From the NCBI GenBank assembly GCA_963707025.1, contig CAVPOM010000015.1:64001-128000 (forward strand): DNA of 64,000 nt, given 5' to 3'. Each line of letters opens with the position of its first letter. The first letter of the stretch is position 1. This DNA comes from an uncultured Verrucomicrobiae bacterium. GTDB taxonomy: Bacteria > Verrucomicrobiota > Verrucomicrobiia > Limisphaerales > Palsa-1400. The notes below the pieces were generated by a model. The model was not told the origin of the DNA, made no database searches, and worked only from the letters and a program-made list of their open reading frames with translations. The translations under genes were made by a program, and so were the position numbers. Positions 4,116 to 51,178 of this stretch are shown here, piece after piece.

Positions 4116-4117
4116 TC

Positions 4118-25506: not shown

Positions 25507-26435
25507 GGCTTTGATGGTAGCTGGGAACGCCACCTTTTGCAATGCAGAGGCCCATATCCCCGCCGGAACACCAAAACGCTTTTCCCCTTCACCCTCTAAA
25601 AAGCGTTCTCGTGTCACGGCCCCAGGCCGGACTGTTTTCAATTCTCCACGCGCGCGCCCTTTTACCCCCGCGCTCCGTTCCGAATTGCAAACAGACCGGC
25701 ATTGGAAAAGGCGGTGCAGTCGCGCCACCCAATTCCGTTGAGCAGGCGCTACTCAACAGTTGGCCGCGATTCTCGCCGGTTTACCCGAAAGCCAAACCCT
25801 CAAGAAATTCCTCGTCTCCAAAATCCGCCCCGGCCACTGTGGCTGCGCAGCTATCCTCGAACTGGAAGAAGCGGCATAAACGTCCACTTTCCAGTATCTG
25901 AAAAAAAGTGGCGATTTTCCGGTTGACTTAATGAACAGGCATATAATGGAGGTATGTTTGATTTTGCGATTACAATGTGGCTTGGAGGGAAAGACGCCGG
26001 CGCTTACGTTGGCCCTTCCCGCGATTGGGTAGAGACCTACGCGGCTCCTCCTGTCCCCGCTTCTAGTCTTGGTGCCGATCCAAACACGGGGCGCGAGATC
26101 AACCTACCCCGTCTTTCTCCAAAGGAGACATCCCGAAAGGACTCCTACGACGGTAGCGGACCATGGCGGTTGATTCAGTGCCCTGCGGGGAGAATTGCGG
26201 GGAAAGTTTCAGGCGTTGACGACAAAAACGCCCAAATCAGCTTTGTTTTGAGAGAACAGCCTGATGTAAAGGAAGACTTTCACCAAGCGGATAATTACGC
26301 CAAACAGAATTGTAATATGTTGTGGCAAAGCATGTTACAAAGTTGCGCTGAACCCATGAAACGCATACAAACCATCGCGATTGACCCGAACCATCGCGTC
26401 TGCGGGGTGATTTGCCGGGACAAAAGGAGGCTTTT

Positions 26436-27680
26436 ATGGCGTGGGTAGAAAAGGGTCCATCAGGGACTTACATCGGGAGAGGCCGGGACAAATATCAGAT
26501 CGGCTTCGAATTTGATACCAAGGTGCCCATCGAACCCGAAAACGCAGACCCGCAGGATCTCCCGGCGGCGCGAAAGGAGAACCACGAACGAGCCCAGGAA
26601 TCCGCAACGATCATGGAACGCTGGGTTCGAGGGAAAATCCCCAAAGAGGAGTTCCTGGCTAAGATGGGCTACGTCGCCGACCGGGTCACAGGTCAGGCCA
26701 CCAAAACAGCCATATCGCTGTACCTGGTCCGCTGGCTTTGGGAGTGGTGCGTCAGGAATCGGCTGCATCACAGCAAAGTCCTGAAGCTCTGCCGCCTCTT
26801 CAACAGCCTGCTTGATAACCTGGGCGGCCTCGCTCACAAAGACGCGAAGACTCTCAACGCCAAACACCTGGGTAATTTCATCTTCACCCGCCGGGCCGAG
26901 GGTTATTCCCCTGCGGTCATCAATGACGACATCAATTATCTGAAGACCATGGCTCGAGACCTCGAACGCCTTACCGGCATCAATGTGGCCGAGTTGTTGG
27001 AAGTAGAAGCCCAAGAGACGCAAGAAAGGCTTCCCTACAAGTGGTCTGAGATTTTGAGGATATTTGAAGCGCTTGATTCTCTTGGACAACTTGGCCGTGA
27101 ATGGAAGACCCTGCTCATGATCATGTTGTATACGGGTCTTCGCCCCTGCGATGCCGCCTTGGTCACGCGGAAGCAGATTGATATCGAGATGCAGTTGATT
27201 CTGGTTGATCCCAGCAAGGTGCGCCGCTACAAAAATGGCAAGAGTCCTCCCAAACCGCTTCACGATGCACTTTTTGTTTACCTGGACGACCTGCTGAAGA
27301 GATTTCCGCTGGAGCCTGACGAGTTCCTCTGCCTCAATTGTGCAAACCGCAGCACAAAGTCGATCACCTACTCCTTCAATCAAATTCTCAAAGCTGCCGG
27401 CGTGTCCCAGTCCGTAATCAAAACGGATTATCTTCAAGGAAAGTTCAGCCAAAAAACACTCTACTCATTTCGTCATACTTTCAACCTCTTAATGACCGCC
27501 GTCGGCGCGGACAGAAAGGAACGCAAGACAGAAATGGGTCAGAAAACGGATGAAGCACAGGGTTACTATGAGCATGACCAGGAACCCGAAGTCATTGCGA
27601 CGCGCCGCAAATTGCTCAACCTGTTGCCGCGCGTGCCCATATCCGTTGGGGACGATACTCGGATTTCCGAAAAAACATGA
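26436..27680 (+). CDS. Tyrosine recombinase/integrase with non-canonical catalytic box II
   Basis: GGAGG RBS, YTGLRPCD (Arg I), LYSFRHTF (Tyr at the usual His), MGQ...AQGYYEH (catalytic Tyr region). Confidence 0.85.
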   Translation: MAWVEKGPSGTYIGRGRDKYQIGFEFDTKVPIEPENADPQDLPAARKENHERAQESATIMERWVRGKIPKEEFLAKMGYVADRVTGQATKTAISLYLVRWLWEWCVRNRLHHSKVLKLCRLFNSLLDNLGGLAHKDAKTLNAKHLGNFIFTRRAEGYSPAVINDDINYLKTMARDLERLTGINVAELLEVEAQETQERLPYKWSEILRIFEALDSLGQLGREWKTLLMIMLYTGLRPCDAALVTRKQIDIEMQLILVDPSKVRRYKNGKSPPKPLHDALFVYLDDLLKRFPLEPDEFLCLNCANRSTKSITYSFNQILKAAGVSQSVIKTDYLQGKFSQKTLYSFRHTFNLLMTAVGADRKERKTEMGQKTDEAQGYYEHDQEPEVIATRRKLLNLLPRVPISVGDDTRISEKT

Positions 27681-28259: not shown

Positions 28260-28404
28260 GAGAGCCATTATACATATGACTGAAGATTCAAAAACAAGAT
28301 TGACCACATGTTCAAACCTGCCCCATAATCTGGCACTCCGCGGTCAGTCTAATGCTGTGCTGGCACCTCGGAAATGTGGGGTCTCGATTCTCGTCGCCAA
28401 TAAA

Positions 28405-29330
28405 CAATAACAGGCGATGTTCCACTTTGTTCCATTTGCTGGTTCCGGGAGGGAAGTGCCAGACCGCAATCGCCAGACCGGTCTGGTCGGCCAAGCGGTG
28501 CAACTCCCATTTCCACAAGCGCAAGCGATATTCATTGCTGCCGCCTCCGTCAGCCGTGATCAGCAAGCGGGTCGCCGTAGGATACAACTGGCGTCCTTCG
28601 TGGCGCTTCCATCCGCGGATGGAAGCCACCGCAAAGGCGGCGGTGCCGTGATCGGTCCCCACATTGACACAGCCGGTGTTGTGCCCAAATCATAGATGCC
28701 GTAGGGATAGGCGCACGGCAATGATGGCTCTTGGAAATCGTGGCCCTTGACCCGTTCGGCGGCCTTCTTCCTGCGCCCCTGGCGCCCTTCATTCTCGAAG
28801 TTGCCCACCAGTTCCTTTTTCTTGGTGTCCACCGAAATCACCGGCCAACCCTGCCCAAGCGCCCGCCGCACTTCCTTGTTGATGTGCCGGAACTGCGCAT
28901 TCCGGTCAGGATGATCCTACCCCTCTTCGGTCTTGCGGTTGCCCTGCAAACCATGGTCCATGTCCCGAAGCAGTTGCGCTACCTTCTGGTGGCTGATCGG
29001 GTGTTGGTGACCGGTCAGTTCGTAGGCCAGCGCCCGGGTGCTTTTGCACTTCCAGCACAGCGGCGATTCCAGATCGCACGCGTCAGCGGCTCCACCAGAG
29101 ATGCCAGCAGGCTTGGCAGCGCGAGATTCCGCACCGTCAGTCGCCAACGCCCGCCTCCCCAATGACGGGTGCGGTCGTCAGGCAACGGTGGCGCGGCCAG
29201 TTCGTTGATCCCTTTGGTAATCGTGACCCGATACAAGCCGCAGGCACGGCTGATTGCCGCCTTGGCGACTGTCCGAGACTCGAATGTCCACCGGGATCGT
29301 CGCCATCTTTTATCGAGCGCCCGCGGCCAG
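28405..29330 (-). pseudogene. ISAzo13-family transposase, fragmented
   Basis: ESPLCWKCKSTRALA, LQGNRKTEEG, PVISVDTKKKELVGNF, LLITADGGGSN, HFPPGTSKWNKVEHRL spread over several frames with stops. Confidence 0.88.
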
Positions 29331-29426: not shown

Positions 29427-29750
29427 ATGAAGACAAAAACTCTGGAAATTGCGGTCGATGAACCGCAGAACATTGATTATCCGAATTGCTACGCGGCGAT
29501 TCCGCCCAACGGCAAGGTGTGCGGTCACACCGGATTGAGGCACACGCACTTGTACACAATGCTCGCGGTAGGAGGTGCTGCGCGACCTTACGTCCGTGTC
29601 GTGAACCTGCGGGAACCCGGCGCGAGCAAGGGCAAAACTATATTCCATGTCGGCGATTTTTTCCGCTACCTGGATTGGAATGCCCGGCAACAGGGTTCTG
29701 GCGAGCAACGCTCCGTCATCCAGGATCAGGACGTCCCCAAAAGCCCGTAG
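29427..29750 (+). CDS. Small excisionase/AlpA-like DNA-binding protein
   Basis: TGLRHTHLYTML...VRVVNLREPGASKGKTIFHVGDFFRYLD resembles winged-HTH excisionase-like proteins. Located in the integrase island. Confidence 0.5.
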   Translation: MKTKTLEIAVDEPQNIDYPNCYAAIPPNGKVCGHTGLRHTHLYTMLAVGGAARPYVRVVNLREPGASKGKTIFHVGDFFRYLDWNARQQGSGEQRSVIQDQDVPKSP

Positions 29751-29799
29751 ACCGTCCTCGATGACTTTCCAAGTTTCGCCAGCCGGATCCAAGGACGTT

Positions 29800-30045
29800 G
29801 GGGGACGAGACGCCAAGGCGATCCTCATGGCCGCCAAGGGCCTGCGGAAGGACCAGATTGCCGACCGGGTTTCGCTGCCACGACAGATTATCAGCAAGTG
29901 GCGCAAACGCTTCATCGAGGAACGCCTGGACGGTTTGAAAAATCTTCCCCGTCCCGGGCGTCCACCCGTTTTTCCCCCTGAACTGGTCATGCAGGTCAAA
30001 GCCCTGGCGTGCGAGCTGCCCCATCAACACGGCCTGCCTCCGTCC
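29800..30045 (+). pseudogene. IS630-family transposase N-terminal HTH fragment
   Basis: AILMAAKG...IA.RV...ISKWRKRFIEERLDGLKNLPRPGRPPVF...VKALACELP. Confidence 0.8.
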
Positions 30046-30412
30046 GGCGCCTTCACTCATTACGTGCATCGAGAGAAGGTTTTTCCCGATTCGTCGTTCC
30101 GTTCGGCTTAAGATCGTCTGATCCATGATCACGGTTTGCGGGCCGGTCAAATCGAATATCTGCACCTGCTCAAACTGGCGGCCGAACTGGGCGAGTCGGC
30201 CCTCAGCGCCCTGGTCAGCGAATAGGCTGGGCCGAGCCGATCGGGCCGATGGCGCGCGGCGGATTTGCGGCGTTACTTGAACTTGGACACCGACCCCCGC
30301 TGGGGGGAGATGACGCTGGAGCCGGAACTGAGCGGCTACGACGCGTTGCTGGAAAGGCAGGTGTCCCATGAATAGCGACCCGCTGGCCTTGCTCCTAAAA
30401 TCCTTTCGCCTA
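30045..30412 (+). pseudogene. IS21-family IstA C-terminal / IstB N-terminal remnant
   Basis: PGAF.HY.HRE..FP...FR, EYLHLLKLAA, ELSGYDALL, followed by overlapping MNSDPLALLLKSFRL. Contains stops. Confidence 0.6.
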
Positions 30413-30740
30413 GCTGGCCGTCCGCGTCGAGGTCCCTTGGGGGATGAAGCCGGGAAATGAACGACCCCGTTGCAGCGCACCCTACTGATCAAGTGACGGC
30501 CCTGAGCGAGCAAGCGCCGGGCGAATTTGGCGGCGGCGTAATAGGCGTCGGCCACCACCGTCACCGGCTAGTCCCAGGGCAAGCCCACGAGCAAGGCCGC
30601 CAATTTATCCAGCAAGGTGCGCCGGTCGCGATTGCTCCAGACCACCCCCTTGTGAAGAATGCGGACGGCCATGGGGACGGCCAGATTAACCCCCGCCGCC
30701 TGCGCCAAGTCCGCAACGGCCTGTATGGAATGGCTCATGA
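30413..30740 (-). pseudogene. IS4/IS701-like DDE transposase fragment
   Basis: VVADAYYAAAKF...HLISRVRCNGV...KGPRRGRP. Confidence 0.65.
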
Positions 30741-34533: not shown

Positions 34534-35067
34534 ATGAAAACGACATTCCGCCAGCTCGCCCTCGGCCTTTTCATCCTGCTTCCGTTGGTCGCGCGGGCCG
34601 AAGACCCCCCCAACCCGGCCATCGCGCCCCATGCGCCGGATCTGGTCGCATTGCAGGGCGATCAATTCGCGCCCTTCAAAGCGGATGAGTTTCTCAAGGC
34701 CCGTTACACCATCCTCTATTTCAGCGCCGGCTGGTGCCCCGACTGCCGGCTCTTTTCCCCGGCTCTCGTCCGGGCCTACGACGCCCAGCCGAAAGGCGCC
34801 GGCCGTTTCGAGGTCTTGTTGTTGACACGGGATAAAACCGAAAAGGACCTGCTGCAATACATGCGCAGTGAAAAGATGAAGTGGCCGGCCCTGGCCTTCG
34901 ACAAAGTGGCGGCGGCCGATGATTTGAAGAAGTTTTATTCGGGCGCCGGCATCCCCTGCCTGACGATTCTGGATCAAAAGGGCGCCGTGGTTTTGCAAAG
35001 CAAGAGCGACAAGGATGCGGTCCGGGTCTTAAAGCAATTGCAGGACTTGCTCGCCGCCAAGGGCTGA
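34534..35067 (+). CDS. Secreted thioredoxin-like protein (nucleoredoxin/tryparedoxin type)
   Basis: Signal peptide, LYFSAGWCPDCR, M.WPAL, GIPCL. Confidence 0.88.
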   Translation: MKTTFRQLALGLFILLPLVARAEDPPNPAIAPHAPDLVALQGDQFAPFKADEFLKARYTILYFSAGWCPDCRLFSPALVRAYDAQPKGAGRFEVLLLTRDKTEKDLLQYMRSEKMKWPALAFDKVAAADDLKKFYSGAGIPCLTILDQKGAVVLQSKSDKDAVRVLKQLQDLLAAKG

Positions 35068-35113
35068 CGCGCCCGGCCCGTTCCAACCCGCCTTGGCCTG
35101 CCCCGGCGATGTT

Positions 35114-36340
35114 CTAGCGTCCGGCCGCAGAGGTCTTTCCGCAATTCTCCAAAACCACGGCGATGCCTTGCCCGACCCCGATGCACATGGTGCAGAGGGC
35201 GTAGCGTCCGCCGGTTCCGGACAGTTGATGGGCTGCGGTGGTGAGCAGGCGCGCCCCGCTCATCCCCAGGGGATGGCCCAGGGCAATGGCGCCGCCTTGC
35301 GGATTGATGCGCGCATCGTTGTCGGCCAGGCCCAATTGGCGGGAGCAGGCCAGCGCTTGTGCGGCGAAGGCCTCGTTCAACTCAAGGATGGCCATGTCGC
35401 CCAGCGCAAGTCCGAGTCGCTCCAGCAGTTTGCGGGTGGCCGGCACCGGGCCGATCCCCATGATGGTCGGCGCTACTCCGGCGACGGCCGCCCCTAAAAT
35501 GCGCGCGCGCGGAGTCAGTCCATGCCGGGTTACCGCGCTTTCGGAGGCGATCAGCAACGCGGCGGCCCCGTCGTTGATGCCGGAGGCATTGCCGGCGGTG
35601 ACCGTTCCTTGCGGGCGGACGATGGGCTTCAATTGCGAGAGTTTTTCCAGGCTGGTGGCGCGGGGATGTTCGTCCTTCGCCACGAGGATGGGATCCCCTT
35701 TGCGCCGGGGGACCGCGACCGGGATGATTTCCGCGGAGAGACGGCCATCGGCCTGGGCGGCGGCGGTTTTTTCCTGGCTCCACAGGGCGAAGCGATCCTG
35801 GTCTTGCCGGCTGATGGAAAACTGGCCGGCCAGATTTTCCGCCGTTTCCGGCATGGTTTCGATGCCGTAGCGTTCCCGCATCCGTTGATTGACAAACCGC
35901 CAGCCGATGGTGGTATCGTAAATCTCCGGCTGTCGCGCAAACGCGGCCGTGGCCTTGGCCATCACGAAGGGCGCGCGGGACATGCTTTCCACACCGCCGG
36001 CGATGAGAAGCTCGGCCTCTCCCGCGACAATGGCGCGGGCGGCGCCGGCCACGGCTTCCATCCCCGATCCGCACAACCGGTTGACGGTGCAGCCGGAAAC
36101 CGTTTCCGGCAACCCGCAAAGGAGCGCGGCCATGCGCGCGACATTGCGGTTGTCTTCACCCGCCTGGTTGGCGCATCCCAGAATGACGTCATCCACCGCG
36201 GCCCAGTCCACGGCCGGGTTGCGCTCCATGAGCGCTTTGATCGGGAGGGTGGCCAAATCATCCGCCCGGATGGCGGCCAGGGCTTCCCCGTAGCGGCCGA
36301 CCGGGGTGCGGATGGCGTCGCAGATAAAGGCGTGTTTCAT
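35114..36340 (-). CDS. pcaF: 3-oxoadipyl-CoA thiolase
   Basis: AFICDAIRTP, GCANQAGEDNRNVARM, NRLCGSG, DTTIGWRF, NEAF, GHPLG, CIGVGQG. These fit the PcaF/PaaJ subfamily. Confidence 0.9.
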   Translation of the reverse strand: MKHAFICDAIRTPVGRYGEALAAIRADDLATLPIKALMERNPAVDWAAVDDVILGCANQAGEDNRNVARMAALLCGLPETVSGCTVNRLCGSGMEAVAGAARAIVAGEAELLIAGGVESMSRAPFVMAKATAAFARQPEIYDTTIGWRFVNQRMRERYGIETMPETAENLAGQFSISRQDQDRFALWSQEKTAAAQADGRLSAEIIPVAVPRRKGDPILVAKDEHPRATSLEKLSQLKPIVRPQGTVTAGNASGINDGAAALLIASESAVTRHGLTPRARILGAAVAGVAPTIMGIGPVPATRKLLERLGLALGDMAILELNEAFAAQALACSRQLGLADNDARINPQGGAIALGHPLGMSGARLLTTAAHQLSGTGGRYALCTMCIGVGQGIAVVLENCGKTSAAGR

Positions 36341-37695
36341 GCTTTTTTGCCGGTGAGTTGCTCCGCGGCGGCCAGCTCGGCTGGCATCGCTTTGATCTTG
36401 CGGAAACCAGAGAGCAAGACCTCGGTCAGGCGGTCAATTTCCGGCTGGTTCATTGGGGTGGAAAGTGTCCCGGAACAGGTGCTGATCAAAATGATCCCTT
36501 CCTCCAGCGCGTGTTCGATCAGCGCCCGGACCAGCCGGGCCTCCCCGGCGGTGACATAGCTTTCCCGATAGTTTCTCGGAGGCCTGGTCTTCATGTGAAT
36601 GCGGAAAATGGAGCCGCCTCCCGTAACGCACGCCGGAATCCCGGCGCTGCGGATGGCCTCGCCGATTTGACGGCGCGCCACTGCCCCAAGGCGATTGAGG
36701 TTGGCAACTCGTTCGCGGTCGAAGTATTCCATGGCGGCCAGTCCCGCCGTCATCGTGATGGGGTTGGCGGAGAATGTCCCAGAGTGGGGAAAGAGAACCT
36801 TTTCCGCAAGCGGATTAAAAACCTCCATCACCTCCTTGCGGCCGGTGACCGCCCCGACCGGGAAGCCGCCTCCGATCATTTTGCCCAACGCGGTCAGGTC
36901 GGGCCCCTCCGGGAACCACTCCTGTGCCCCCCCATAGGCCGAGCGGTAGGTGATCACTTCGTCGAAAACCAGGAGCGCGCCGTGCTGTTGCGTCCAATTC
37001 CGCAGCGCCTCGATAAACGGCGCCCCCGCCGGGATGAATCCAACCCGATGGGGCATGGGATCCACCAGCACGCAGGCCAGCTCCCCGGCGTGGCGGTCCA
37101 GAATGGCCAGCGCGACTTCCGGATTGTTGAATGGGATGACGATGACCTCATCCAAGGCGGAACGCGGCGTGCCTTGCGCCACCGCAATGCTGCGCGGTTG
37201 TTTGGCCTCGCCCCAATTGGCCGGCTGCGCGGTCTGGCTTACCTCCGCATAATCATACAGACCGTGATAGGCGCCCTCCACCTTGGCGATCTTGGGCCGC
37301 CCCGTGTAGGCGCGCGCCGCCTTGAGGCAGCACATGACAGCCTCCGTGCCTGAATTGACGAAACGGATCTTCTCGAAACCCTTCGTGCGCCGGGTCATGT
37401 GCTCGGCCAGTTCAACTTCAACTTCCGTGGCGAAGGTGTAGCCGGTACCTTTCTGCAATTGCCGGGTCACTGCCTCCACAATCACCGGGTGAGCATGGCC
37501 GTGGATGAGCGAAGCCATGTTGTTGGCGAAGTCAATCCGGCGATGGCCTTCCACGTCGGTCAGATAGCATCCCTCGCCCTTGGACGCGTAGAGCGGATAA
37601 GGACGCCGCAACACCGTGTTGCGGCTCACGCCGCCGGGCAGAACGCCCAGGGCCCGTTCATAAATCTGCCGGCTGCGTGAATAATCGTGCGTCAT
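36337..37695 (-). CDS. Class III PLP aminotransferase (GSA-aminomutase-like; putative beta-amino acid aminotransferase)
   Basis: From MTHDYS: PGGVSR, RFVNSGTEA, YHG, FDEVIT, LGKMIGGGFPVGA, HSGTFSANP. ATGA-coupled on both sides. Confidence 0.9.
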   Translation of the reverse strand: MTHDYSRSRQIYERALGVLPGGVSRNTVLRRPYPLYASKGEGCYLTDVEGHRRIDFANNMASLIHGHAHPVIVEAVTRQLQKGTGYTFATEVEVELAEHMTRRTKGFEKIRFVNSGTEAVMCCLKAARAYTGRPKIAKVEGAYHGLYDYAEVSQTAQPANWGEAKQPRSIAVAQGTPRSALDEVIVIPFNNPEVALAILDRHAGELACVLVDPMPHRVGFIPAGAPFIEALRNWTQQHGALLVFDEVITYRSAYGGAQEWFPEGPDLTALGKMIGGGFPVGAVTGRKEVMEVFNPLAEKVLFPHSGTFSANPITMTAGLAAMEYFDRERVANLNRLGAVARRQIGEAIRSAGIPACVTGGGSIFRIHMKTRPPRNYRESYVTAGEARLVRALIEHALEEGIILISTCSGTLSTPMNQPEIDRLTEVLLSGFRKIKAMPAELAAAEQLTGKKA

Positions 37696-38411
37696 AGACT
37701 GGGAACGGTTCCCGCCGCCGATCGTTCCGCGAGTGCCGCGGTCCGCCCATCCATCAAGGGTGCGGCGGTCTTTTCCTGCACGGCGCCAAACTCCAGGCCC
37801 GGCGCAATCCTGCGCGCCACCAGCCCGGCGGGGGTCACGTCTATGATGGCCAGGTTGGTGTAGATTCGGTCCACCACGCCTTTGCCGGTCAAGGGATAGG
37901 TGCAGGCGGCCACGATCTTTGGTTCGCCATTTCGGGTGGTGTGTTCGGTCAGGACGAAAATCTTTTTCACCCCCGCCACCAAGTCCATGGCCCCGCCCAC
38001 TGCCGGAATGGCATCGGCGGCGCCGGTGGACCAGTTGGCCAGATCGCCTTGGGCGGAGACTTGCATGGCGCCCAGCACGCAAAGATCAATGTGCCCGCCG
38101 CGAATCATGGCAAAGCTGTCGGCGTGATGAAAATAGGCGGCCCCGGCAATGGCCGTCACCATCTTTTTGCCGGCATTGATCAACTCAGGGTCTTCCTGGC
38201 CGGGCGCCGGCGCCGGTCCCATGCCGAGCAGTCCGTTCTCCGTTTGGAATATCACCTCGCGTCCGGCCGGCACGAATTGGGCCACCAATTCCGGCAGGCC
38301 GATGCCCAGATTCACGCACGCCCCATCCGGAATGTCCTCCGCCACCAGGCGGGCCATTTCCTCCCGGCCCCACTCGGGGCGACATTTGCCGGGTGCCGTT
38401 ACGGGTAGCAT
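37692..38411 (-). CDS. pcaJ: 3-oxoacid (3-oxoadipate) CoA-transferase subunit B
   Basis: VNLGIGLP, TENG (catalytic Glu), SFAMIRGGHID, GDLANW, IPAVGGAMDL. Confidence 0.88.
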   Translation of the reverse strand: MLPVTAPGKCRPEWGREEMARLVAEDIPDGACVNLGIGLPELVAQFVPAGREVIFQTENGLLGMGPAPAPGQEDPELINAGKKMVTAIAGAAYFHHADSFAMIRGGHIDLCVLGAMQVSAQGDLANWSTGAADAIPAVGGAMDLVAGVKKIFVLTEHTTRNGEPKIVAACTYPLTGKGVVDRIYTNLAIIDVTPAGLVARRIAPGLEFGAVQEKTAAPLMDGRTAALAERSAAGTVPSL

Positions 38412-39109
38412 GGGCCCTCCTTGACCAGTTGGGATTCCTGGACCGGGCTGGCTACGACGACCAGACGGCTGACAAAAATTCCGGGTGTGACCACCGTTTC
38501 GGGATCTATTTCACCCGCCTCGACCAACTCCTTGACCTGCGCGATCGCCGTTTTTGCGGCCATGCACATAATGGGGGCAAAATTGCGCGCCGTTTTGTTG
38601 TAAACCAGATTGCCATAGCGATCCGCCCGGGCGGCCTTGACCAGTGCGAAGTCCGCGCACAGGCCATGCTCCATCACATATTCCTGGCCTTGGAATCGGC
38701 GCGATTCCTTGCCGGCCGCCAGCAGTGTGCCGACGGAGGAAGGGGTGTAAAAGGCCGGGATGCCCGCCCCGCCGGCCCGGATGCGTTCGGCCAGGGTTCC
38801 TTGCGGCACCAGCTCCAGCTCGATTTCTCCACGCCGGTAAAGTTCGGGAAAGACCGTCGAATTAGCGCTGCGCGGATAGGAGCAGATCATCTTGCGAACC
38901 TGCCCGTGGGCGATCAACGCCGCCAAGCCCACCCGCCCGCTGCCGGTATTGTTGCTGATCACCGTCAGATGGCGCGCCCCGTGGTCGTACAAGGCGTGAA
39001 TCAGCTCAATCGGGCTGCCAGCTTCGCCAAAGCCGCCAATCATCACCGTCGCCCCATCCGGAATGTCGGCGACGGCGGCGGCCAGCGATTCAACCCGCTT
39101 GTTGATCAT
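38399..39109 (-). CDS. pcaI: 3-oxoacid (3-oxoadipate) CoA-transferase subunit A
   Basis: MINK, GGFGEAGSP, SNN.G, ICSYPRS, PQGTLAERIRAGGAGIPAF, ARNFAP. Confidence 0.88.
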   Translation of the reverse strand: MINKRVESLAAAVADIPDGATVMIGGFGEAGSPIELIHALYDHGARHLTVISNNTGSGRVGLAALIAHGQVRKMICSYPRSANSTVFPELYRRGEIELELVPQGTLAERIRAGGAGIPAFYTPSSVGTLLAAGKESRRFQGQEYVMEHGLCADFALVKAARADRYGNLVYNKTARNFAPIMCMAAKTAIAQVKELVEAGEIDPETVVTPGIFVSRLVVVASPVQESQLVKEGPCYP

Positions 39110-40767
39110 CGTCCTGCCTTTGCGGCGTGGGCGGTTGCCCTGGCCCGCCCGGCCCGGGGAAAGTGTTTGCGATGAATGCCGCTCAATTCACTCTCAATCC
39201 CTTTCAACTCGTTTTCGAAAAAGAATTTCGGCGTGTCCAGCGGAACCAGTTTGTCCACCCGCGTTTCCTTCGCGTCGTACTTCGCCAGAAAAACCCGGTC
39301 CATCCAGGCCATGTTGCGGCTTTCGTTGAATTTCAAGGCAAAGACTTTCTCCCCGCCGACTTCGGCGGTGCCCAGAAGGGAGACCTTGCCCGCCGAGCTG
39401 GTCATCGTGATATAGCGCGACGGGCGGTGCAGCGAGGCCAGCGAACGGTAGATGAGGTTGAACACCTTTTCAATATCCGCCAGCGGCGCGGCGAAGTAAT
39501 GTTGCTCGCCGGTGGGGCGCGCGCAGTACATGGCATGAAAACGAACCGAGAGCGCGGCCAGAATGTGGGCCAAATCAATCCAATTCCGCGCCGACCGTTC
39601 CACGTTCACCCGGCCGTTCTTGTCCATGAACAAGCTGACATGGTTCATGATGGGACTTTGGCTGCGCACCACCACGCCGTGGTTTTGCAGCCGGCGCAGG
39701 GCGGCCAGGGTGCTCGGATTGAGCACTTCGCGCGGAGTCGAAAAGTGAGCCATCCAGCAAAGCTGCACCCCGTTGTCGCGGAGCGTATCGAACAAGGCCA
39801 GCATCGGGTCATACTCGTGGCTGAGGATCAGCCCGGGCTGGTAAGTCAGCAGGCGTGAGCCGAGCCGGACGGCCCGGATGTGGAGCAATTCGGGATCTTC
39901 GAGGATGGGCCTCACATATTGGCGCAGGCGTTCCACCGGCAGATAACCCGCGTCCCCCCCGGTGATCAGGATGTCGGTCACCTCCGGATGCGCCCTCAGA
40001 TATTTATGGACCTGGGCGATGTCCTCCTGGATGAACATGTCGTGATCGCCCCGCACCTGCGCATGGCGGAAACAATAGGTGCAATAGGCGAAACAATTCT
40101 GCGTGGTCTGATCGAAAATGAGTTGGCACTGGGGGTATTTGTGCTGGCTGCCATCAAGAATTTCTATGCCCCCTTCTGCCGCCTCCAGCCACGGCTTGTT
40201 CAGCAACTGTTTGCCATCGTGCGGATTAGTCTCCTCCATGTAATCCTCCACCACCTGCTGTCGTTGCTCCTCCGTCCTGGCCGCCACGTAGGCCTCCGTC
40301 ACTTTCTTCCCCATCATGCCCGGCTGGGGGAAGACGAGCTGATACATGGAATCCTGTTCATACTGGTCCCAGTTGATGCTGTTCAAAATGTGCCGGGAGG
40401 CCTTGAACCGATAGACTTCCACGAAAAGCTCCCGTTCCGGGATGTGGCCGGGCTGGATGCCGTTTTTTGCCAGAAGCCTGACCACTTCCCTGAACCCCTC
40501 CAAGCCGGAGTATTGTTCCCGGTCGTGGAAGAGAAAGGGCCGTGATTCGAGAAGCCCGGAGTGCTCCGGGTAGGTGGCCTGCAAACGGCTCAAGACCCCG
40601 GCAGGCAGGAGCCTTTCGGATTGGATGATCTGACGGGTTTCCTCCGGGTAGCCGTAGCGATCCAGCATCTTGGCGACATCGGCTGCCGTCACCGTGTCCG
40701 TGACTTTGGCCGGGATCGTCCCGGCCTTGCGGGAGTCGGATCTGTTTCCGTTCAACGCCATCTTCAT
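39106..40767 (-). CDS. KamA/lysine-2,3-aminomutase-family radical SAM + PLP enzyme
   Basis: QHKYP, CFAYCTYCFR (CxxxCxxC), DILITGGD, RLGSR, MAHF..PRE, RSQSP, SAGKV (probable PLP Lys). Probable start MKMALNG. Confidence 0.9.
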   Translation of the reverse strand: MKMALNGNRSDSRKAGTIPAKVTDTVTAADVAKMLDRYGYPEETRQIIQSERLLPAGVLSRLQATYPEHSGLLESRPFLFHDREQYSGLEGFREVVRLLAKNGIQPGHIPERELFVEVYRFKASRHILNSINWDQYEQDSMYQLVFPQPGMMGKKVTEAYVAARTEEQRQQVVEDYMEETNPHDGKQLLNKPWLEAAEGGIEILDGSQHKYPQCQLIFDQTTQNCFAYCTYCFRHAQVRGDHDMFIQEDIAQVHKYLRAHPEVTDILITGGDAGYLPVERLRQYVRPILEDPELLHIRAVRLGSRLLTYQPGLILSHEYDPMLALFDTLRDNGVQLCWMAHFSTPREVLNPSTLAALRRLQNHGVVVRSQSPIMNHVSLFMDKNGRVNVERSARNWIDLAHILAALSVRFHAMYCARPTGEQHYFAAPLADIEKVFNLIYRSLASLHRPSRYITMTSSAGKVSLLGTAEVGGEKVFALKFNESRNMAWMDRVFLAKYDAKETRVDKLVPLDTPKFFFENELKGIESELSGIHRKHFPRAGRARATAHAAKAGR

Positions 40768-41190
40768 AGCTTGTGTTTTGTGTCTGGCAACTGCCCGATT
40801 TTGCTCACGCGGGGCCAGCCGATTTGCCCCGCGGCACTCACCTTGCACGGGGCGGGCGCAGTATCAGGTTGGATCAAATATACGCAGCCTGAGCCGAATC
40901 ACTTGCCCTCGGTTGGCAAAAGCCTACCATTTTTTGGCAGGCCGGAAAATCCTGATTTCAATCCCATTCCCAAGCTCAATCCCAATGCCAATCCCGTTAA
41001 ACTATTCCCCCGGAACGCCGATGATTATCCATGGCGACGACCATCATGGCTCAATGGACCATGTCGTTGCTAAAACAGCGGGCGATATGAACGTTAAAAC
41101 GAGCGAAGAGGGCTTGGGTTCATTGGAACGAAGTGTTTGGACGGTCGAGGCGGTTGCCTCCCGGTGCCGAGAGACTTGCCCATCATTCCC

Positions 41191-42108
41191 ATGAACTCGC
41201 CCAGCCCAACGAGAGACTATCTGGATGACGTGGTGCGAAAGATTCACAATTCGCGTCAAGTCATTCTCAATCCAGCCGAACGCTACTTGAATGGCGTTGC
41301 CAGTCTGCCTCCGGCCCCGATGCTCATGACCGAATTGCTGGCTCTGTTCCAGGACCCTGACCGCGATGTGGACCACGCTGTGGAACTGATCAGTTACGAG
41401 CCTGTCTTAACGGCCCAGATTCTTCGCACCTGCAACAGCGCCTGTTTCGCCGGCGAGCAGCGCCCCGGGGACATCTTTGAGGCCGTTTCCAGAATTGGGT
41501 TTTACCAGGTTTACTCCCTGGTGGTTTCCATTTTTGGCGCCAGGGCAAAATCCATGGAGGGAGCCGACCAGGGGGTGAAGGTGGACGAGTTATGGCGTCA
41601 TTCCGTGGCGGTCGCCGTGTCGGCTGCCGCGGTGGCGGAGGAAACCGGGCAGGCCAAGACGGTCGCTTTCACGGCGGGGTTGTTGCACGACATTGGCAAG
41701 CTGGTGCTGGCTTCGGCTGAGCGCGAGCGTTACGCCCGATTAATTCAAAGCGCGAAAGACCAGGGCCTGGCCTTGAGCGCGTTGGAACGCTCCGCCTTGG
41801 GAACGGACCATGCCGAACTGGGCGGTGAATTGATGAGCCGCTGGAAATTGCCGCCGGATGTCGTCGCCGCCGTCCGCCATCACCACGACCTTGAGGCCCC
41901 GCCGCCCTACGGCGAGTTGACCGCGGCCGTGCAGGTCGGGGACATGATCGGGCATCAACTTTTCGCCGATGATCTGGCCAACACCGCCTTTTTGCCAACC
42001 TCGCCAGCCTCCCTGGAGGCGCTCCAACTCAGTCCCGGCGCAGTTCCCCGCCTCCTGGCCAAAACGCAAGCCGAGATGGAAAAAGTCAAGGGCATGCTGG
42101 AGATATAA
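41191..42108 (+). CDS. HDOD-domain signalling protein
   Basis: LPPAP, EPVLTAQILRTCNS, LWRHSVAVA, AFTAGLLHDIGKL, HAELG..L..WKLP, HHH. Confidence 0.92.
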   Translation: MNSPSPTRDYLDDVVRKIHNSRQVILNPAERYLNGVASLPPAPMLMTELLALFQDPDRDVDHAVELISYEPVLTAQILRTCNSACFAGEQRPGDIFEAVSRIGFYQVYSLVVSIFGARAKSMEGADQGVKVDELWRHSVAVAVSAAAVAEETGQAKTVAFTAGLLHDIGKLVLASAERERYARLIQSAKDQGLALSALERSALGTDHAELGGELMSRWKLPPDVVAAVRHHHDLEAPPPYGELTAAVQVGDMIGHQLFADDLANTAFLPTSPASLEALQLSPGAVPRLLAKTQAEMEKVKGMLEI

Positions 42109-45115: not shown

Positions 45116-46117
45116 TTAGTCCTGAGCCGCCCGCCCCGGCCCGCTTTTCCGGCAAAGGAACACGCCCTCCTCCCCGGACGGGGCCACCCATTGTTCCCGC
45201 GCCTCCAGCCGGTGCAGCCGGAGCAGGTCGCAAATCCGCTCCGGCGTGTAGCGATAGGAAAAGAAGAGGCGGATTTCATCCCCGGCGCCAAATGCAAAAG
45301 GTTCGCCCTGGACGGTGAGCGAGCGGCGTCGTGTCAAGTGGAAATACGCCGCCACCCTTTTGCAGCCGGCCGCGGAATCCTCAATGGCAAAACGCACCGC
45401 GCCGTCTCCGCGCTCGAACCCCAGGTCGAACAGAAAGGTCGTCAGCCAGTCGCGGGTGGGCGGATTGTCGTAACCGGGGAGGATGCGCTCCATGCCGGCG
45501 GCGTAATCGGGGCCGGGGGCCAGATTCGCGCTGAAAAGCAGCCAATCCTCGCCCCCCACCAGGCCGGCCAGGCGCTGCAAAATCAGTTCCGGCTCAAAAT
45601 TGGGAATCATGCCGAAAAAGGTCAGCAAGCGCGCGGCGCCGGCGGCGCCGGGCGGGCCGAAAATTTCAGCCAGATCATCGGCCGCGGCCAGATCGCAAAC
45701 CAGGGGAGCGCACGGCACATCTGCCACCGCCTCCCGGGCGGCCTGGCGGGCGGTCAACGCCAGCGCCAGGCTGACATCGCAGGGCCGGTAGGACACTTTC
45801 CTCCCCTGGCCGGCCAGCAGGCGCAGCAAGCGGGCGTCTTTCTGGCCGCCGCCGCAGCCCAATCCGATGACTTGAACCTCCGGCGCCGGCACCCGCTCCG
45901 CCGCGGCGGCGCAGGCGCTGTCGTACATCGCCCGGCAAGCGGGATCGGTGCGCGAGGGCGAACAGGCTTCGTGCAGGGCCAGCCACTTTTGCGCCTGTTT
46001 CCAGGATTCGTAGTGGAACTTGGGATTGACAGAGCGCGCCCGCAGGGAATCGAGCAGGTCGCGCCGGACATTTTCCGGGAACTGGCTGGAATGAATGGTG
46101 ACGCTGGCCAAGGCCAT
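45116..46117 (-). CDS. EgtD-like SAM-dependent methyltransferase (Methyltransf_33)
   Basis: PKFHY, IGLGCGGGQKD, PCDVS, FFGMIPNFEP, GYDNP, FFSYRY. Confidence 0.78.
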   Translation of the reverse strand: MALASVTIHSSQFPENVRRDLLDSLRARSVNPKFHYESWKQAQKWLALHEACSPSRTDPACRAMYDSACAAAAERVPAPEVQVIGLGCGGGQKDARLLRLLAGQGRKVSYRPCDVSLALALTARQAAREAVADVPCAPLVCDLAAADDLAEIFGPPGAAGAARLLTFFGMIPNFEPELILQRLAGLVGGEDWLLFSANLAPGPDYAAGMERILPGYDNPPTRDWLTTFLFDLGFERGDGAVRFAIEDSAAGCKRVAAYFHLTRRRSLTVQGEPFAFGAGDEIRLFFSYRYTPERICDLLRLHRLEAREQWVAPSGEEGVFLCRKSGPGRAAQD

Positions 46118-47796: not shown

Positions 47797-48155
47797 CGGA
47801 TGGCACGGATACAAACACGGGAGGGCGAGAATCCCTGCCCGCCATAGGCTTGGCGGCGGCGGGCGTCGAGCCGCGACTCGATTCCAAAAGGGCCTGCCTC
47901 GAGACAAAACCTCGAGCTAGAACGGACTTGGGGCGCGGTTTCCCCGCCCGCTTTCATCCCACGGGCGACATGGTGTGAGGCTGGCTCGGAGCCGTTTAGA
48001 TTCATCTATAACACAATGATTTAGAGGATCTTAGGACTTTTCTAGGACAAACCCACTTTGGACGGTGACCCTCTTTGAGGCGTCCTGGTTGGTTCTGGAT
48101 GACGCAAAGTTGACACTGTTTGTCGTCCGCGTGTCATATTGTTGCTTTTATTGAT

Positions 48156-48169
48156 TGACATTTTGTCAT
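48156..48169. promoter_or_regulatory. Palindromic operator-like site TGACA-TTT-TGTCA overlapping a TTGACA -35 box
   Basis: Perfect palindrome about 20 bp upstream of the repressor start, with related half-sites at 48100-48136. Confidence 0.5.
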
Positions 48170-48190
48170 CTTCCGACTAAATGTCTGAAC

Positions 48191-48787
48191 ATGTCAGTGG
48201 CTCTCGAACCGCTTGCAAAAATTCGGGGCAAGTTGGGAATAACCCAACATGACCTCGCAGAGAAACTCGGAATCTCGCGCCAGCATCTGTCGAAGCTGGA
48301 GAATTCCCCAGGTCCGTTGACTCCAAAACTGGCGCGCCGCGTGGCGGAGGTGTTTCGGAATTTGGGCATGCCACAGGCGGGACCGCGCAGTGGAATTCGA
48401 GCGATTCCAGTTCGATCTTGGGCACAGGCCGGTATTGGAGTTGATTTTGAGGAACTTCCGCTCGATTGGCAAAAGCAAATAGCAACGGATTGTCCCGACG
48501 AACAGGCCTTTGCGGTTGAAATCCAAGGGGATTCAATGGAGCCCAAATACTTGCAGGGAGATATCGCCGTGTTAATGCCGGCTCACCAACCGCGAAATGG
48601 CAGCTTGGTGGTCGCCCGATTAGAGGAGGGAGTTGTGTTCAAAGTGTTCACCGTGCGCGACCAATCGCCGATAAGAATTTGCTCCTTTACGAGTTACAAT
48701 CCAGTATTTCAACCAATTGAGGTGTCGGAGAGCAAGGTCATTTGGAATTATCCGGTGTATCAAATCGTGCGTCAGGTCTGGCGCTGA
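48191..48787 (+). CDS. XRE-HTH + S24 peptidase repressor (CI/LexA-like)
   Basis: ITQHDLAEKLGISRQHLSKLE, AQAG cleavage-like site, GDSMEP (Ser), VFK (Lys). Confidence 0.92.
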   Translation: MSVALEPLAKIRGKLGITQHDLAEKLGISRQHLSKLENSPGPLTPKLARRVAEVFRNLGMPQAGPRSGIRAIPVRSWAQAGIGVDFEELPLDWQKQIATDCPDEQAFAVEIQGDSMEPKYLQGDIAVLMPAHQPRNGSLVVARLEEGVVFKVFTVRDQSPIRICSFTSYNPVFQPIEVSESKVIWNYPVYQIVRQVWR

Positions 48788-48792
48788 ATTGT

Positions 48793-50365
48793 ATGCATCT
48801 CTCAACCCTCCTCGACACACTCGGCTACACCGGTTCTAGAAATTTTCTCCAGCGAGGAACGGCTGCCTTTGATCGTGCGCCGGATATTGGGCATATCCTT
48901 CGGACGGCTGCGCGGCGCCGGGCATGCCGGCTTGAAGGTGTTTATTCGCTGCGTCCATTCAACGACGAAGGATCGCCAGTTCCGGTTGTTTATGTCTGCG
49001 AAGCTGATGACAGCGCAGCAGCGGACAAAATTCATGCCCTTGTCTGGAACCAAGATATCGTTCCCTTCGTCCTTGTTCGTACGCCTGCTGGCTTGCGGCT
49101 TTATTCCGGGTTCGAGTGCAAGCACGCAGGGACTCACGAACGCCAGGGCATCCTCGAACCTTTGATTCAGTTCAATGAAGTTGCCGACCGGCTTGCCGAA
49201 TTCCATGCGAGCGCAATTGATTCCGGAGAACTCTGGCGCAGGCGTGGAGACGACGTTCAGCCCGACAAACGTGTTTATTGGAGCCTGCTGGACAACCTTA
49301 AACAGCTCGCCAAGAAATTCGCTGCCGAGTTCGGAGCAGCAAAGGCGAAAGCGGTTATCCATCCCCTCATCGGGAAATACGTCTATCTCTATTATCTGAA
49401 GGACCGCGGATTTCTCTCTCGGCGGCGGCTGGTGGAATGGGAAATCGAACATGACTCCGTTTACGGTCGCAACGCTACTTTGGCCGGACTTCGTGCCGTC
49501 TGCGGTAAACTGGACGGCTTCCTCAACGGTCGCGTCTTCCCGCTAAAGCTCCATGGCGAAAGCGCGCCTACGGAAGAGCAAATCCAGCGTATTGCTGGGG
49601 CTTTTGCTGGCGATACGTTCGCTGGCAGTTGGCAATTTCATCTTCCATTCACTGCATTCAAGTTCGATTTCATCCCCATCGAGACACTTTCGATGATTTA
49701 CGAGCAGTTCCTCCATCTCCCGGACAAACCTGACGCGGACGACGAGGACGAGCACAGCGAGGGGCGCAAGGCCGGCGCATATTATACGCCCATCCCGGTA
49801 GTCAACTACATGCTCGCCGAAATGGACCGGCGACGGCGCCTTCTGCGTGGTGTCCGAGTGTTCGATCCCAGTTGTGGATCGGGCGCGTTTCTCGTGCAGT
49901 GCTACCGGCGACTTATTGAGCGCGAGTTTATTGCGCACAAAAAGAAGCCTGCTCCGCATGAACTCGCCACGTTGCTGAAGCGCCACATCTTTGGCGTCGA
50001 TATGGATGAGGATGCCTGTAGCGTCGCCGAATTCAGCCTTTATCTGACGCTGCTCGACTACGTGGAACCCAAGGACCTCATTGACCATCCGCGTTTCCGC
50101 CTTCCAACTCTGCGGAAAAACAACATCTTCTGCTCCGACTTCTTCAAGGTGCTGCCTTTCAAGACGAAGTTCCACTGGATTGTAGGAAATCCACCCTGGA
50201 AAAAGCTCATTCCGCATAAATTGGAAAAGCGCGATAAAGGTGCATTGCAATGGATGAAGAAAAACGCCGCCCTTATGCCGGTGGGTGACAATTCTCTTCT
50301 ACAGGCCTTCGCATGGCGCTGCCGCGAGTTTGTGACCGCAGATGGTGGCTGCGCATTGCTTGTCC
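48793..50365 (+). pseudogene. N6-adenine DNA methyltransferase (type IIG/Eco57I-like R-M protein), truncated by an IS3 element
   Basis: IPIETLSMIYEQFL, GAYYTP, FDPSCGSGAFL, IFGVD, VGNPPW. Runs directly into IS3 orfB sequence. Confidence 0.88.
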
Positions 50366-51178
50366 ATCCCAGCACGTAACGACTCCACCAATCCATCACC
50401 GCCACCAAATACATAAACCCAGTTGCCATAGGCACATACGTAATGTCCGAACACCAAACCTGATCCGGTCCCGTCACTGCCAAATTGCGTAACAGATACG
50501 GATAAATCTGGTGCCCCATCTCCCGCAGACTCGTCTTGGGCTTGGCGTAAATCGCCTCGATCCCCATCAACCGCAGCAGCCGCACCACCCGTTTGCGATT
50601 GATGGTCAAACCCTCCCGGCGCAACAGCACGGTCAGTTTGCGGCTGCCATAAACCGGGTGGTCCAAATGCATCTGGTCCAACCGCCGCATCAGCGCCAGG
50701 TTCTCCTCTGTCTCCGGACAGCACTGGTAATAATAACTGCCACGGCACACCGCCAGCAGCTCGCACTGGCGCCGCACGCTGAGCTGCGGATCGGGAGCGA
50801 TTAAACATGTTAAAGCCCCAGTTGCCTGGACTTTTTTTTAAGCCAGTCCAAGTCCACCGTCAGTTGGCCAATCTTCTCATGCAGTTGGGCAATCAACTGT
50901 TCCTGATCCTCCGTGCGGGGTTGCCCGGGCTCAAACAATTCGGGCATGTGATCCCGAATCGTCGCCCGCCACTGCGTGACCTGCGCCGGATGCACCGCAT
51001 ACTCTCGCGCCAATTGCGCGACCGTCTTCAGCCCCACCAGGGCTTCGAATCCCACTTTGGCCTTGAAGGCCGCACTGTGTCTTTTCCGTTTTGCTTTCAT
51101 AAGTCTGCTCTTTCTTATCTACAGCAAACCGGCAAAAATCGAAACTTACCTGTGGTCTAAAAATAGGGGTCCAGCTCA
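50366..51178 (-). mobile_element. IS3-family element, partial (left end, orfA 50810-51100, truncated orfB)
   Basis: Terminus TGAGCTGGACCCCTATTTTTAGACCACAGG at 51178. orfA has RKRHSAAFKAKV...LDWLKKK. orfB has YGSRK, NRKRVVRL, WCSDITY, YLVAVMDWWSRYVLGW and then breaks off. Confidence 0.92.

Follow-up and report, generated by a model that had tools for sequence, protein, structure and literature searches.

A five-gene operon in a 64,000-nucleotide stretch of DNA from an uncultured Verrucomicrobiae bacterium (Limisphaerales; Palsa-1400; assembly GCA_963707025.1, contig CAVPOM010000015.1, positions 64,001 to 128,000; the whole stretch is referred to below as the window) probably encodes a catabolic route by which 2-aminoadipate is converted through 3-aminoadipate and 3-oxoadipate, the latter free or as its coenzyme A (CoA) ester, to succinyl-CoA and acetyl-CoA. 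Judged from its genomic context, the operon would serve the oxygen-independent, redox-neutral breakdown of L-2-aminoadipate made from lysine. This route had been put forward in a first-pass annotation of the DNA and is supported here by new evidence, namely, the presence of genes for lysine 6-transaminase (LAT) and piperideine-6-carboxylate (P6C) dehydrogenase (Pcd) beside the same gene cassette in a related genome and their co-occurrence with it in many host genomes.

Organization of the operon and the proposed route

The operon lies on the minus strand and consists of the following genes, listed in the order of their reading and followed by the region upstream of them.

39106..40767, minus strand: Kam-like radical S-adenosylmethionine (SAM)/pyridoxal phosphate (PLP) protein, 553 amino acids (aa) from the ATG at 40767; putative 2-aminoadipate 2,3-aminomutase
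38399..39109, minus strand: pcaI, 3-oxoacid CoA-transferase subunit A, 236 aa; TIGR02429 match
37692..38411, minus strand: pcaJ, 3-oxoacid CoA-transferase subunit B, 239 aa; TIGR02428 match
36337..37695, minus strand: class III aminotransferase of the glutamate-1-semialdehyde aminomutase (GSAM)/beta-transaminase group, 452 aa; Aminotran_3; putative 3-aminoadipate aminotransferase
35114..36340, minus strand: 3-oxoadipyl-CoA thiolase, PcaF type, 408 aa; TIGR02430 over the cut-off
40768..41136, no strand: divergent intergenic stretch of 369 bp that separates the operon from an HDOD-domain gene; presumed promoter region

The open reading frame (ORF) listing, the translations and the reading of the junctions from the DNA confirmed the five overlapping minus-strand genes of the first-pass annotation, with the aminotransferase gene placed inside the pcaIJ-F unit. 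ATGA junctions link the Kam-like gene to pcaI, pcaJ to the aminotransferase gene, and the aminotransferase gene to the thiolase gene, and the frames of pcaI and pcaJ overlap by 13 bp (ATGCTACCCGTAA). For pcaJ, the true start may be some codons downstream of the one used here, since alignments with distant homologues begin only at residue 14; the frame of the Kam-like gene stays open upstream of its ATG as far as a GTG at 40848. By Pfam and NCBIfam, the products are classed as Radical_SAM/KamA-like, two CoA_trans proteins, Aminotran_3, and Thiolase_N with Thiolase_C. A consensus scan of positions 34600 to 41300 gave no signal above chance for a sigma-70-type promoter or a terminator. Genes for aromatic ring cleavage or lysine fermentation are missing nearby, as the first reading had it: Pfam scans of the 23 neighboring ORFs between 25.9 and 54.8 kb gave none, and kamDE, kdd, kce, and kal were not found among the five genes, those 23 ORFs, or the DNA flanking related loci, a search that did not extend to the remainder of the genome.

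In the first step of the proposed route, the Kam-like enzyme, using SAM, a [4Fe-4S] cluster, and PLP, would shift the amino group of 2-aminoadipate from C2 to C3 to give 3-aminoadipate, and the beta-type class III aminotransferase would then hand this amino group to a 2-oxo acid, leaving 3-oxoadipate. Transamination might equally well precede or follow CoA transfer, an order that the sequence cannot tell. PcaIJ, assigned at the level of the family, would move CoA from succinyl-CoA to produce 3-oxoadipyl-CoA and succinate, after which PcaF, assigned at the level of the orthologue, would split 3-oxoadipyl-CoA into acetyl-CoA and succinyl-CoA, which would reenter the CoA-transferase step. The net reaction would convert 2-aminoadipate, a 2-oxo acid, and CoA to succinate, acetyl-CoA, and an amino acid, with no loss of CO2. 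Both in the window's own genome (on contig C7) and in relatives, 2-aminoadipate could be supplied by LAT and P6C dehydrogenase.

Conservation of the gene order

Related loci were collected from a scan of one genome per species (37 loci) and from a metagenome scan (36 loci), and their gene order was read by tblastn with the five window proteins. The order Kam-like gene, pcaI, pcaJ, aminotransferase gene, and thiolase gene is common to all 73 related loci, which are not all independent, as a genome locus is in some cases repeated among the metagenome loci (L075 and L022 are an example). The contig edge is reached in 26 of the 73; among the 47 with enough DNA, 41 hold all five genes, a count that includes one locus (L081) retaining the last residues of the Kam-like protein only. 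The six loci without an adjacent thiolase gene despite at least 1.6 kb of DNA past the aminotransferase gene are four from Bacteroidota, according to their record titles, and two untitled metagenome contigs; each of the four searched genomes lacking the adjacent gene encodes a PcaF-type thiolase elsewhere (590 to 606 bits). Since the same order recurs in all 73 related loci of other organisms, the linkage of the five genes is more than chance and is not unique to the window's genome, and the survey that the first-pass annotation called for thus came out in its favor.

The record titles of the loci span at least eight phyla: Verrucomicrobiota, Bacteroidota, Pseudomonadota, Neomarinimicrobiota, Sumerlaeota, Eisenbacteria, Planctomycetota, and Fibrobacteraceae. 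The Kam-like proteins form a tight family of more than 120 cluster representatives that are 65 to 90% identical over nearly their full length; in a library clustered at 50% identity, there was a single full-length representative, and the next relative was 39% identical. The Kam-like gene was found in none of 300 other sampled genomes of the window's own phylum, so a correlation within that sample could not be computed, and the host genomes of the 37 genome loci were used instead. The cassette is sporadic and appears to have spread horizontally; its rarity in its own phylum and the debris of mobile elements near the operon fit a region acquired by transfer.

Thiolase and CoA-transferase of the lower pathway

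The thiolase scored 682.5 bits against the PcaF equivalog model TIGR02430 (cut-off, 597) and 703 against PRK09050 (cut-off, 605), and its matches in the PDB included 8GQH (568 bits) and the beta-ketoadipyl-CoA thiolase 6PCA (564 bits). The PcaF model is strict, since none of 14 control genomes passed its cut-off. The protein is also 67% identical over 398 residues to the annotated pcaF product of Sinorhizobium meliloti pRM41A, whose locus has the layout pcaDCHG, IclR, CoA-transferase subunits A and B, and pcaF, so that the PcaF assignment of the first-pass annotation holds against a real pcaDCHG-pcaIJF locus. A second PcaF-grade thiolase was not found in the window's own genome, which is 88% complete.

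PcaI scored 352.4 against TIGR02429 (cut-off, 128.5) and PcaJ scored 294.3 against TIGR02428 (cut-off, 243.55), both being subfamily models that cover PcaIJ as well as the acetoacetate-type ScoAB. The best solved relatives are of the ScoA type, with no PcaIJ structure among the PDB matches. The two subunits are 63.8% and 54% identical, respectively, to subunits A and B of the S. meliloti pRM41A pca locus, and this identity, together with the thiolase partner, suggests a putative specificity for 3-oxoadipate. In the same 88%-complete genome, PcaD was not found and PcaH was not found over the cut-off, which leaves the pcaIJF genes with no visible aromatic feeder.

Outside any pca operon, plasmid pTM2 of Tistrella mobilis (L082; 336828 to 351532) encodes the nearest homologue of the CoA-transferase among plasmids (71% identity). 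Its neighbors encode a GcvA-type regulator, a DUF1338 protein, an aldehyde dehydrogenase, and a PLP aminotransferase. DUF1338 is the family of the 2-oxoadipate-converting HglS, and the locus appears to place this CoA-transferase clade in a further setting related to lysine or 2-aminoadipate.

The Kam-like radical-SAM protein

The Kam-like protein scored 24.7 bits against Pfam Radical_SAM, below the gathering score, and 47 to 65 bits against six KamA-type NCBIfam models whose cut-offs range from 199 to 650; it also differs from KamA in its C-terminal half and in an N-terminal extension of approximately 200 residues. Modeling with AlphaFold2 from an alignment of 60 sequences reached a mean predicted local distance difference test score of 90, and the top Foldseek match of the model was KamA (2A5H; E value, 9.5e-16; target-normalized template modeling score, 0.66), with the next match at an E value of at least 3.7e-5.

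The KamA features that anchor cofactors and substrate are retained. The register was taken from a MAFFT alignment of 61 sequences that agreed with an independent hhalign comparison (probability, 99.85%), the canonical KamA of the same genome being used as a bridge. The CxxxCxxC motif (C225/C229/C232) aligns with that of KamA, with C232 invariant and C225 and C229 each present in at least 90% of 60 sequences. R234 is conserved and occupies the position of the KamA arginine that follows the cysteine motif (R134 equivalent), and K461, invariant in the 60 sequences, is matched by both methods to the lysine of the GGGGK motif in the canonical KamA of the genome. We take R134 of KamA to bind the alpha-carboxylate of the substrate and K337 (Clostridium subterminale numbering) to bind PLP. 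The two aspartates that are a feature of lysine 2,3-aminomutases (TIGR03820) and that lie in the motifs QCD and IDAPGGGGK of the canonical KamA are missing: the positions of D293 and D330 are occupied by R417 and T454, the latter a serine in some members. These aspartates presumably hold the epsilon-ammonium group of lysine. The overall pattern of residues fits a putative alpha-amino acid 2,3-aminomutase whose substrate would have an anionic rather than a cationic far end.

The genome also encodes a canonical KamA-family protein on contig C3 (122084 to 123331; locus L038:1396-2634, plus strand). It scored 324 against TIGR00238 (cut-off, 199) and 492 against the AblA model (cut-off, 525), and it retains both aspartates. 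Its gene adjoins a fucose isomerase gene, and neither an acetyltransferase nor an EF-P partner was found in the 4-kb locus around it. The absence of the aspartate pair from the Kam-like protein and the existence of this separate KamA suggest that the Kam-like enzyme is not one that acts on lysine only, an outcome that the first-pass annotation had named as adverse to the route.

Beyond the tight family, a wide and unnamed KamA-like clade (P0129 to P0214) comprises proteins of 400 to 610 aa that are 24 to 39% identical to the Kam-like protein and fall below every KamA-family cut-off. Most of its members carry an R-D-T-G motif at the position of KamA D293.

The aminotransferase

The aminotransferase matched Aminotran_3 at 208 bits, and its best model was that of HemL, TIGR00713, against which it scored 324.1 bits, below the cut-off of 527.3. 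Its best solved relative, 6K8H, scored 411 bits and ForI (6SSD) 348 bits, followed by GSAMs at 204 to 237, 2YKU at 217, and 4AO9 at 213. The enzyme is therefore not a true HemL, since it falls below the cut-off of that model and matches solved GSAMs at lower scores than 6K8H; true HemL identity had been recognized from the outset as a finding that would tell against the route. The source on 6K8H, an omega-transaminase of Sphaerobacter thermophilus, gives as its substrates aromatic, branched, and aliphatic beta-amino acids as well as a gamma-amino acid (PMC10589169).

Genes for the formation of 2-aminoadipate

The substrate of the route is suggested by the genes that accompany the cassette in other organisms. 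In another Verrucomicrobiae genome (L001), whose Kam-like protein is 85% identical to that of the window, genes for LAT and P6C dehydrogenase lie directly upstream of the cassette in divergent orientation, scoring 564 (cut-off, 520.8) and 792 (cut-off, 730) against the L-lysine 6-transaminase and L-piperideine-6-carboxylate dehydrogenase models, respectively. Together these two enzymes convert lysine to 2-aminoadipate. In the window's own genome, genes for both enzymes are neighbors on contig C7 (263.9 to 266.8 kb; locus L045:5899-8800, minus strand). A search of that genome gave neither saccharopine dehydrogenase (PF03435) nor homoaconitase.

LAT exceeded its cut-off in 11 of the 37 host genomes, including all 7 Verrucomicrobiota hosts, and was present as two fragments in one more; among the 300 sampled genomes of the phylum, it did so in 2. 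P6C dehydrogenase was found at an E value of ≤1e-100 in 29 of the 37 hosts, over the cut-off in 15, and hosts G308 and G319 have a weaker P6C dehydrogenase match within approximately 300 bp of LAT.

A second kind of context was seen in Neomarinimicrobiota/Marinisomatota, where the cassette is preceded, on its own strand, by a homoaconitase gene and a homoisocitrate dehydrogenase-like gene (L011:1513-7164 and L012). The homoaconitase is of the fungal fused type (TIGR00139, 801; cut-off, 530), and the homoaconitase-homoisocitrate dehydrogenase route forms 2-oxoadipate; in the three genomes of this group, homoaconitase is over the cut-off and LysX is not. The C6-specific thiolase, the LAT/Pcd context, and the homoaconitase context together point to 2-aminoadipate as the substrate.

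Counterevidence and alternative readings

Several observations weigh against the 2-aminoadipate route. The LAT and Pcd genes of the window's own genome are each interrupted by frameshifts or a stop in the assembly and could be pseudogenes; a nearby RND permease gene is split as well (308 and 828 aa), which suggests assembly indels rather than gene decay. LAT and Pcd adjoin the cassette in only 1 of the 73 loci, 8 of the 37 hosts have no P6C dehydrogenase at an E value of ≤1e-100, and all four gammaproteobacterial hosts have neither LAT nor, at that threshold, P6C dehydrogenase. The association with LAT within the phylum may reflect shared ancestry, and the LAT statistic is not a clean one because the hosts are kin. 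The Kam-like protein scored 63.4 bits against TIGR00238, far from the curated cut-off of 199.2, and BLASTP alone aligned residues 206 to 378 only (approximately 30% identity over 173 residues), leaving its C-terminal half unaligned with KamA. R417 is also kept in the wider unnamed KamA-like clade, at 30 to 38% identity, and may not be a substrate-specific residue. BCCT transporter genes, which do not suggest a dicarboxylic amino acid, are found near the cassette in three gammaproteobacterial loci (L031 to L033, where the genes upstream encode a hotdog thioesterase and a LysR regulator besides the BCCT transporter; the contig of L034 is too short) and in a further Pseudomonadota locus (L009). 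Finally, 3-aminoadipate was not found as a metabolite of any pathway in the literature searched.

The alternative named in the first-pass annotation was glutamate, which would pass through beta-glutamate and 3-oxoglutarate to malonyl-CoA and acetyl-CoA. The replacement of the aspartate pair by arginine and threonine suits any acidic side chain, the known glutamate 2,3-aminomutase presumably also lacks these aspartates, and beta-glutamate is a known osmolyte, with osmolyte-type BCCT transporters encoded at some loci. This substrate is nevertheless improbable: the Kam-like protein scored 53.8 bits against the glutamate 2,3-aminomutase equivalog (cut-off, 650), the thiolase is of the 3-oxoadipyl-CoA (C6) type at orthologue grade, and the adjacency and co-occurrence of LAT and P6C dehydrogenase indicate a C6 product of lysine. 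Free 3-oxoglutarate is, moreover, unstable. A cationic substrate has also been considered, either lysine itself, degraded through beta-lysine and 3-oxo-6-aminohexanoate, or N6-trimethyllysine, which would give gamma-butyrobetainyl-CoA and acetyl-CoA. Lysine 2,3-aminomutase is the nearest characterized family, BCCT transporters typically carry quaternary amines, and the BCCT genes of L009 and of L031 to L033, the latter with a thioesterase gene, would fit such a compound. The change at both KamA aspartate positions, one of them to arginine, and the presence of a separate canonical KamA in the genome make a cationic side chain very unlikely; the BCCT gene of L009 may belong to a neighboring module, as it is placed with MttB-like and GcvT-like genes, and no paper linking trimethyllysine to an aminomutase was found. 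Trimethyllysine and other quaternary amines were set aside as candidates on account of the Arg/Thr replacement, the company of the L009 transporter gene, and the lack of BCCT genes near the cassette in the flanks of all other lineages.

The CoA-transferase models do not separate PcaIJ from ScoAB, which leaves room for a neutral amino acid processed by a beta-keto route, such as leucine (through beta-leucine and beta-ketoisocaproate to isobutyryl-CoA and acetyl-CoA) or 2-aminobutyrate (to acetoacetate). The source on 6K8H lists beta-leucine among the aliphatic and aromatic beta-amino acids that this enzyme accepts, and an acetate-CoA ligase is encoded upstream of the cassette in L009, as is a protein of the same flank family in L008. 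Against this stand the match of the thiolase to the PcaF equivalog rather than to an acetoacetyl-CoA or branched-chain type, the 64% and 54% identities of the CoA-transferase to genuine pca operon subunits, and the linkage of lysine-to-aminoadipate genes to the cassette, so that a neutral substrate is hardly to be expected. It is also conceivable, at a low probability, that the Kam-like protein performs other radical-SAM/PLP chemistry, such as an epimerization or another kind of 1,2-shift, and that the compound on which it acts is nonetheless turned into 3-oxoadipate in the end. In favor of this reading, every KamA-family cut-off is missed widely (63 versus 199 bits), the N-terminal extension and the altered C-terminal half set the protein apart, and its nearest relatives beyond the tight family (≤39% identity) are all unnamed. 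Against it, the cysteine triad, R234, and K461 are all kept, KamA is the sole strong structural match of the predicted model, and precisely an alpha-to-beta shift would be required for an alpha-amino acid to enter a 3-oxoacid pathway by way of a beta-transaminase.

The homoaconitase and homoisocitrate dehydrogenase-like genes next to the cassette in Marinisomatota gave rise to the further idea of a shunt from 2-oxoglutarate to succinyl-CoA that would bypass 2-oxoglutarate dehydrogenase and constitute a new variant of the tricarboxylic acid cycle, dependent on the putative radical-SAM 2-aminoadipate 2,3-aminomutase. The homocitrate branch would lengthen 2-oxoglutarate to 2-oxoadipate by means of acetyl-CoA, 2-aminoadipate would arise by transamination, and the cassette would give back succinyl-CoA and the same acetyl-CoA, which would act catalytically, for a net yield of one CO2 and one NADH. 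The chances of such a shunt are very slim.

Flanking genes and genomic surroundings

The flanks of the related loci were annotated on both strands. In 15 loci from Bacteroidota, Neomarinimicrobiota, and similar untitled metagenome contigs (for example, L011:7428-7982, L014:7351-7911, and L060:9333-9965), the gene immediately upstream of the Kam-like gene, and on its strand, encodes a regulator of approximately 185 aa with an XRE-type helix-turn-helix (HTH) and a cupin domain. A LysR-type regulator gene is adjacent in five loci (gammaproteobacterial loci, Fibrobacteraceae, and L035), and the window's own cassette has no adjacent regulator gene. Two of the gammaproteobacterial loci (L032 and L033) also encode a class I/II aminotransferase downstream of the cassette. 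The remaining flank genes are unrelated or unnamed.

In L009 (positions 28 to 4993), genes for a GcvT-like aminomethyltransferase, an MttB-family protein resembling trimethylamine methyltransferase, and the BCCT transporter lie together. The MttB-family gene is in two pieces of 327 and 150 aa, which cover model positions 2 to 313 and 330 to 469. The three genes form a module for the demethylation of quaternary amines, and its in-frame interruption may be either a stop of the pyrrolysine type or a break.

Within the window, a gene for an HDOD protein lies upstream of the operon. Genes of mobile elements lie 5 to 9 kb downstream and comprise a phage-type integrase (26412 to 27680) and two transposase fragments, one of the ISAzo13-type DDE family (28312 to 28662, minus strand) and one of DDE_5 (29716 to 30564, minus strand); between them and the operon, from 30 to 35 kb, there are only ORFs without family matches. 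An EgtD-like SAM methyltransferase (45116 to 46117, minus strand; a weak match to Methyltransf_33) and a LexA-like HTH/S24 protein followed by an MmeI/Eco57I-type methylase (48155 to 50379) are apparently unrelated to the operon.

Novelty and implications

No paper on the proposed route was found in a literature search that covered few subscription journals. Publications mentioning 3-aminoadipic or beta-aminoadipic acid included no title or abstract on such a route, and combinations of aminomutase with 3-oxoadipate, lysine catabolism, or radical SAM returned nothing relevant in the literature searched. The kinds of enzyme are known, namely, a KamA-like radical-SAM/PLP mutase, a GSAM-like beta-transaminase, PcaIJ, and PcaF, and it is their combination, the substrate of the mutase, and the 3-aminoadipate intermediate that are undescribed in that literature.

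If the route is correct, it would represent a new radical-SAM aminomutase activity (2-aminoadipate 2,3-aminomutase), a new beta-transaminase substrate (3-aminoadipate), and the first nonaromatic entry to the lower beta-ketoadipate pathway. Lysine or 2-aminoadipate could then be catabolized to succinate and acetyl-CoA without oxygen, a redox step, or loss of CO2, and a function would be provided for a gene block that is annotated only as "lysine 2,3-aminomutase" or "hypothetical" in members of the Verrucomicrobiota, Planctomycetota, Bacteroidota, Marinisomatota, Sumerlaeota, Eisenbacteria, Fibrobacterota, and marine Gammaproteobacteria. Biocatalysis would be a further field of interest for the enzymes, with regard to beta-aminoadipate and to routes that link lysine with adipate-type C6 diacids. 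Cultured carriers among Photobacterium and Shewanella species allow the proposed route to be tested directly.

Comparison with known systems

The Kam-like protein shares the CxxxCxxC motif, the arginine, the PLP lysine, and the fold with KamA of C. subterminale (2A5H) and with the TIGR00238 family, which includes AblA, EpmB, and the glutamate and arginine 2,3-aminomutases, but differs from them in its low score, its N-terminal extension, and the Arg/Thr replacement of the aspartate pair. Its partners are PcaIJF, unlike the kamDE, kdd, kce, and kal genes of the clostridial lysine fermentation cluster. The closest solved relatives of the window aminotransferase are the GSAM-like beta-transaminases (6K8H, Mesorhizobium 2YKU, and Variovorax 4AO9) and ForI (6SSD). 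Characterized GSAM-like beta-transaminases act on aromatic or aliphatic monocarboxylic beta-amino acids, whereas a dicarboxylic substrate such as 3-aminoadipate is not described in the literature searched. The thiolase and both transferase subunits resemble those of the lower beta-ketoadipate pathway (S. meliloti pcaDCHG-pcaIJF and Pseudomonas putida PcaF, 6PCA), but the pcaIJF genes of the cassette are interleaved with an aminotransferase gene and preceded by an aminomutase-like gene.

At the level of the pathway, clostridial lysine fermentation and the proposed route have in common an aminomutase followed by a beta-keto cleavage. Canonical catabolism of 2-aminoadipate resembles the proposed route at its entry, where lysine is converted to 2-aminoadipate through LAT or the saccharopine enzymes and P6C dehydrogenase, and then proceeds from 2-oxoadipate to glutaryl-CoA and crotonyl-CoA or by way of DUF1338/HglS. 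Unlike canonical 2-aminoadipate catabolism and lysine fermentation, the proposed route would involve neither an oxidative decarboxylation nor a B12 enzyme, and its products would be succinate (by way of succinyl-CoA) and acetyl-CoA, in place of the two acetyl-CoA and two CO2 of the canonical pathway.

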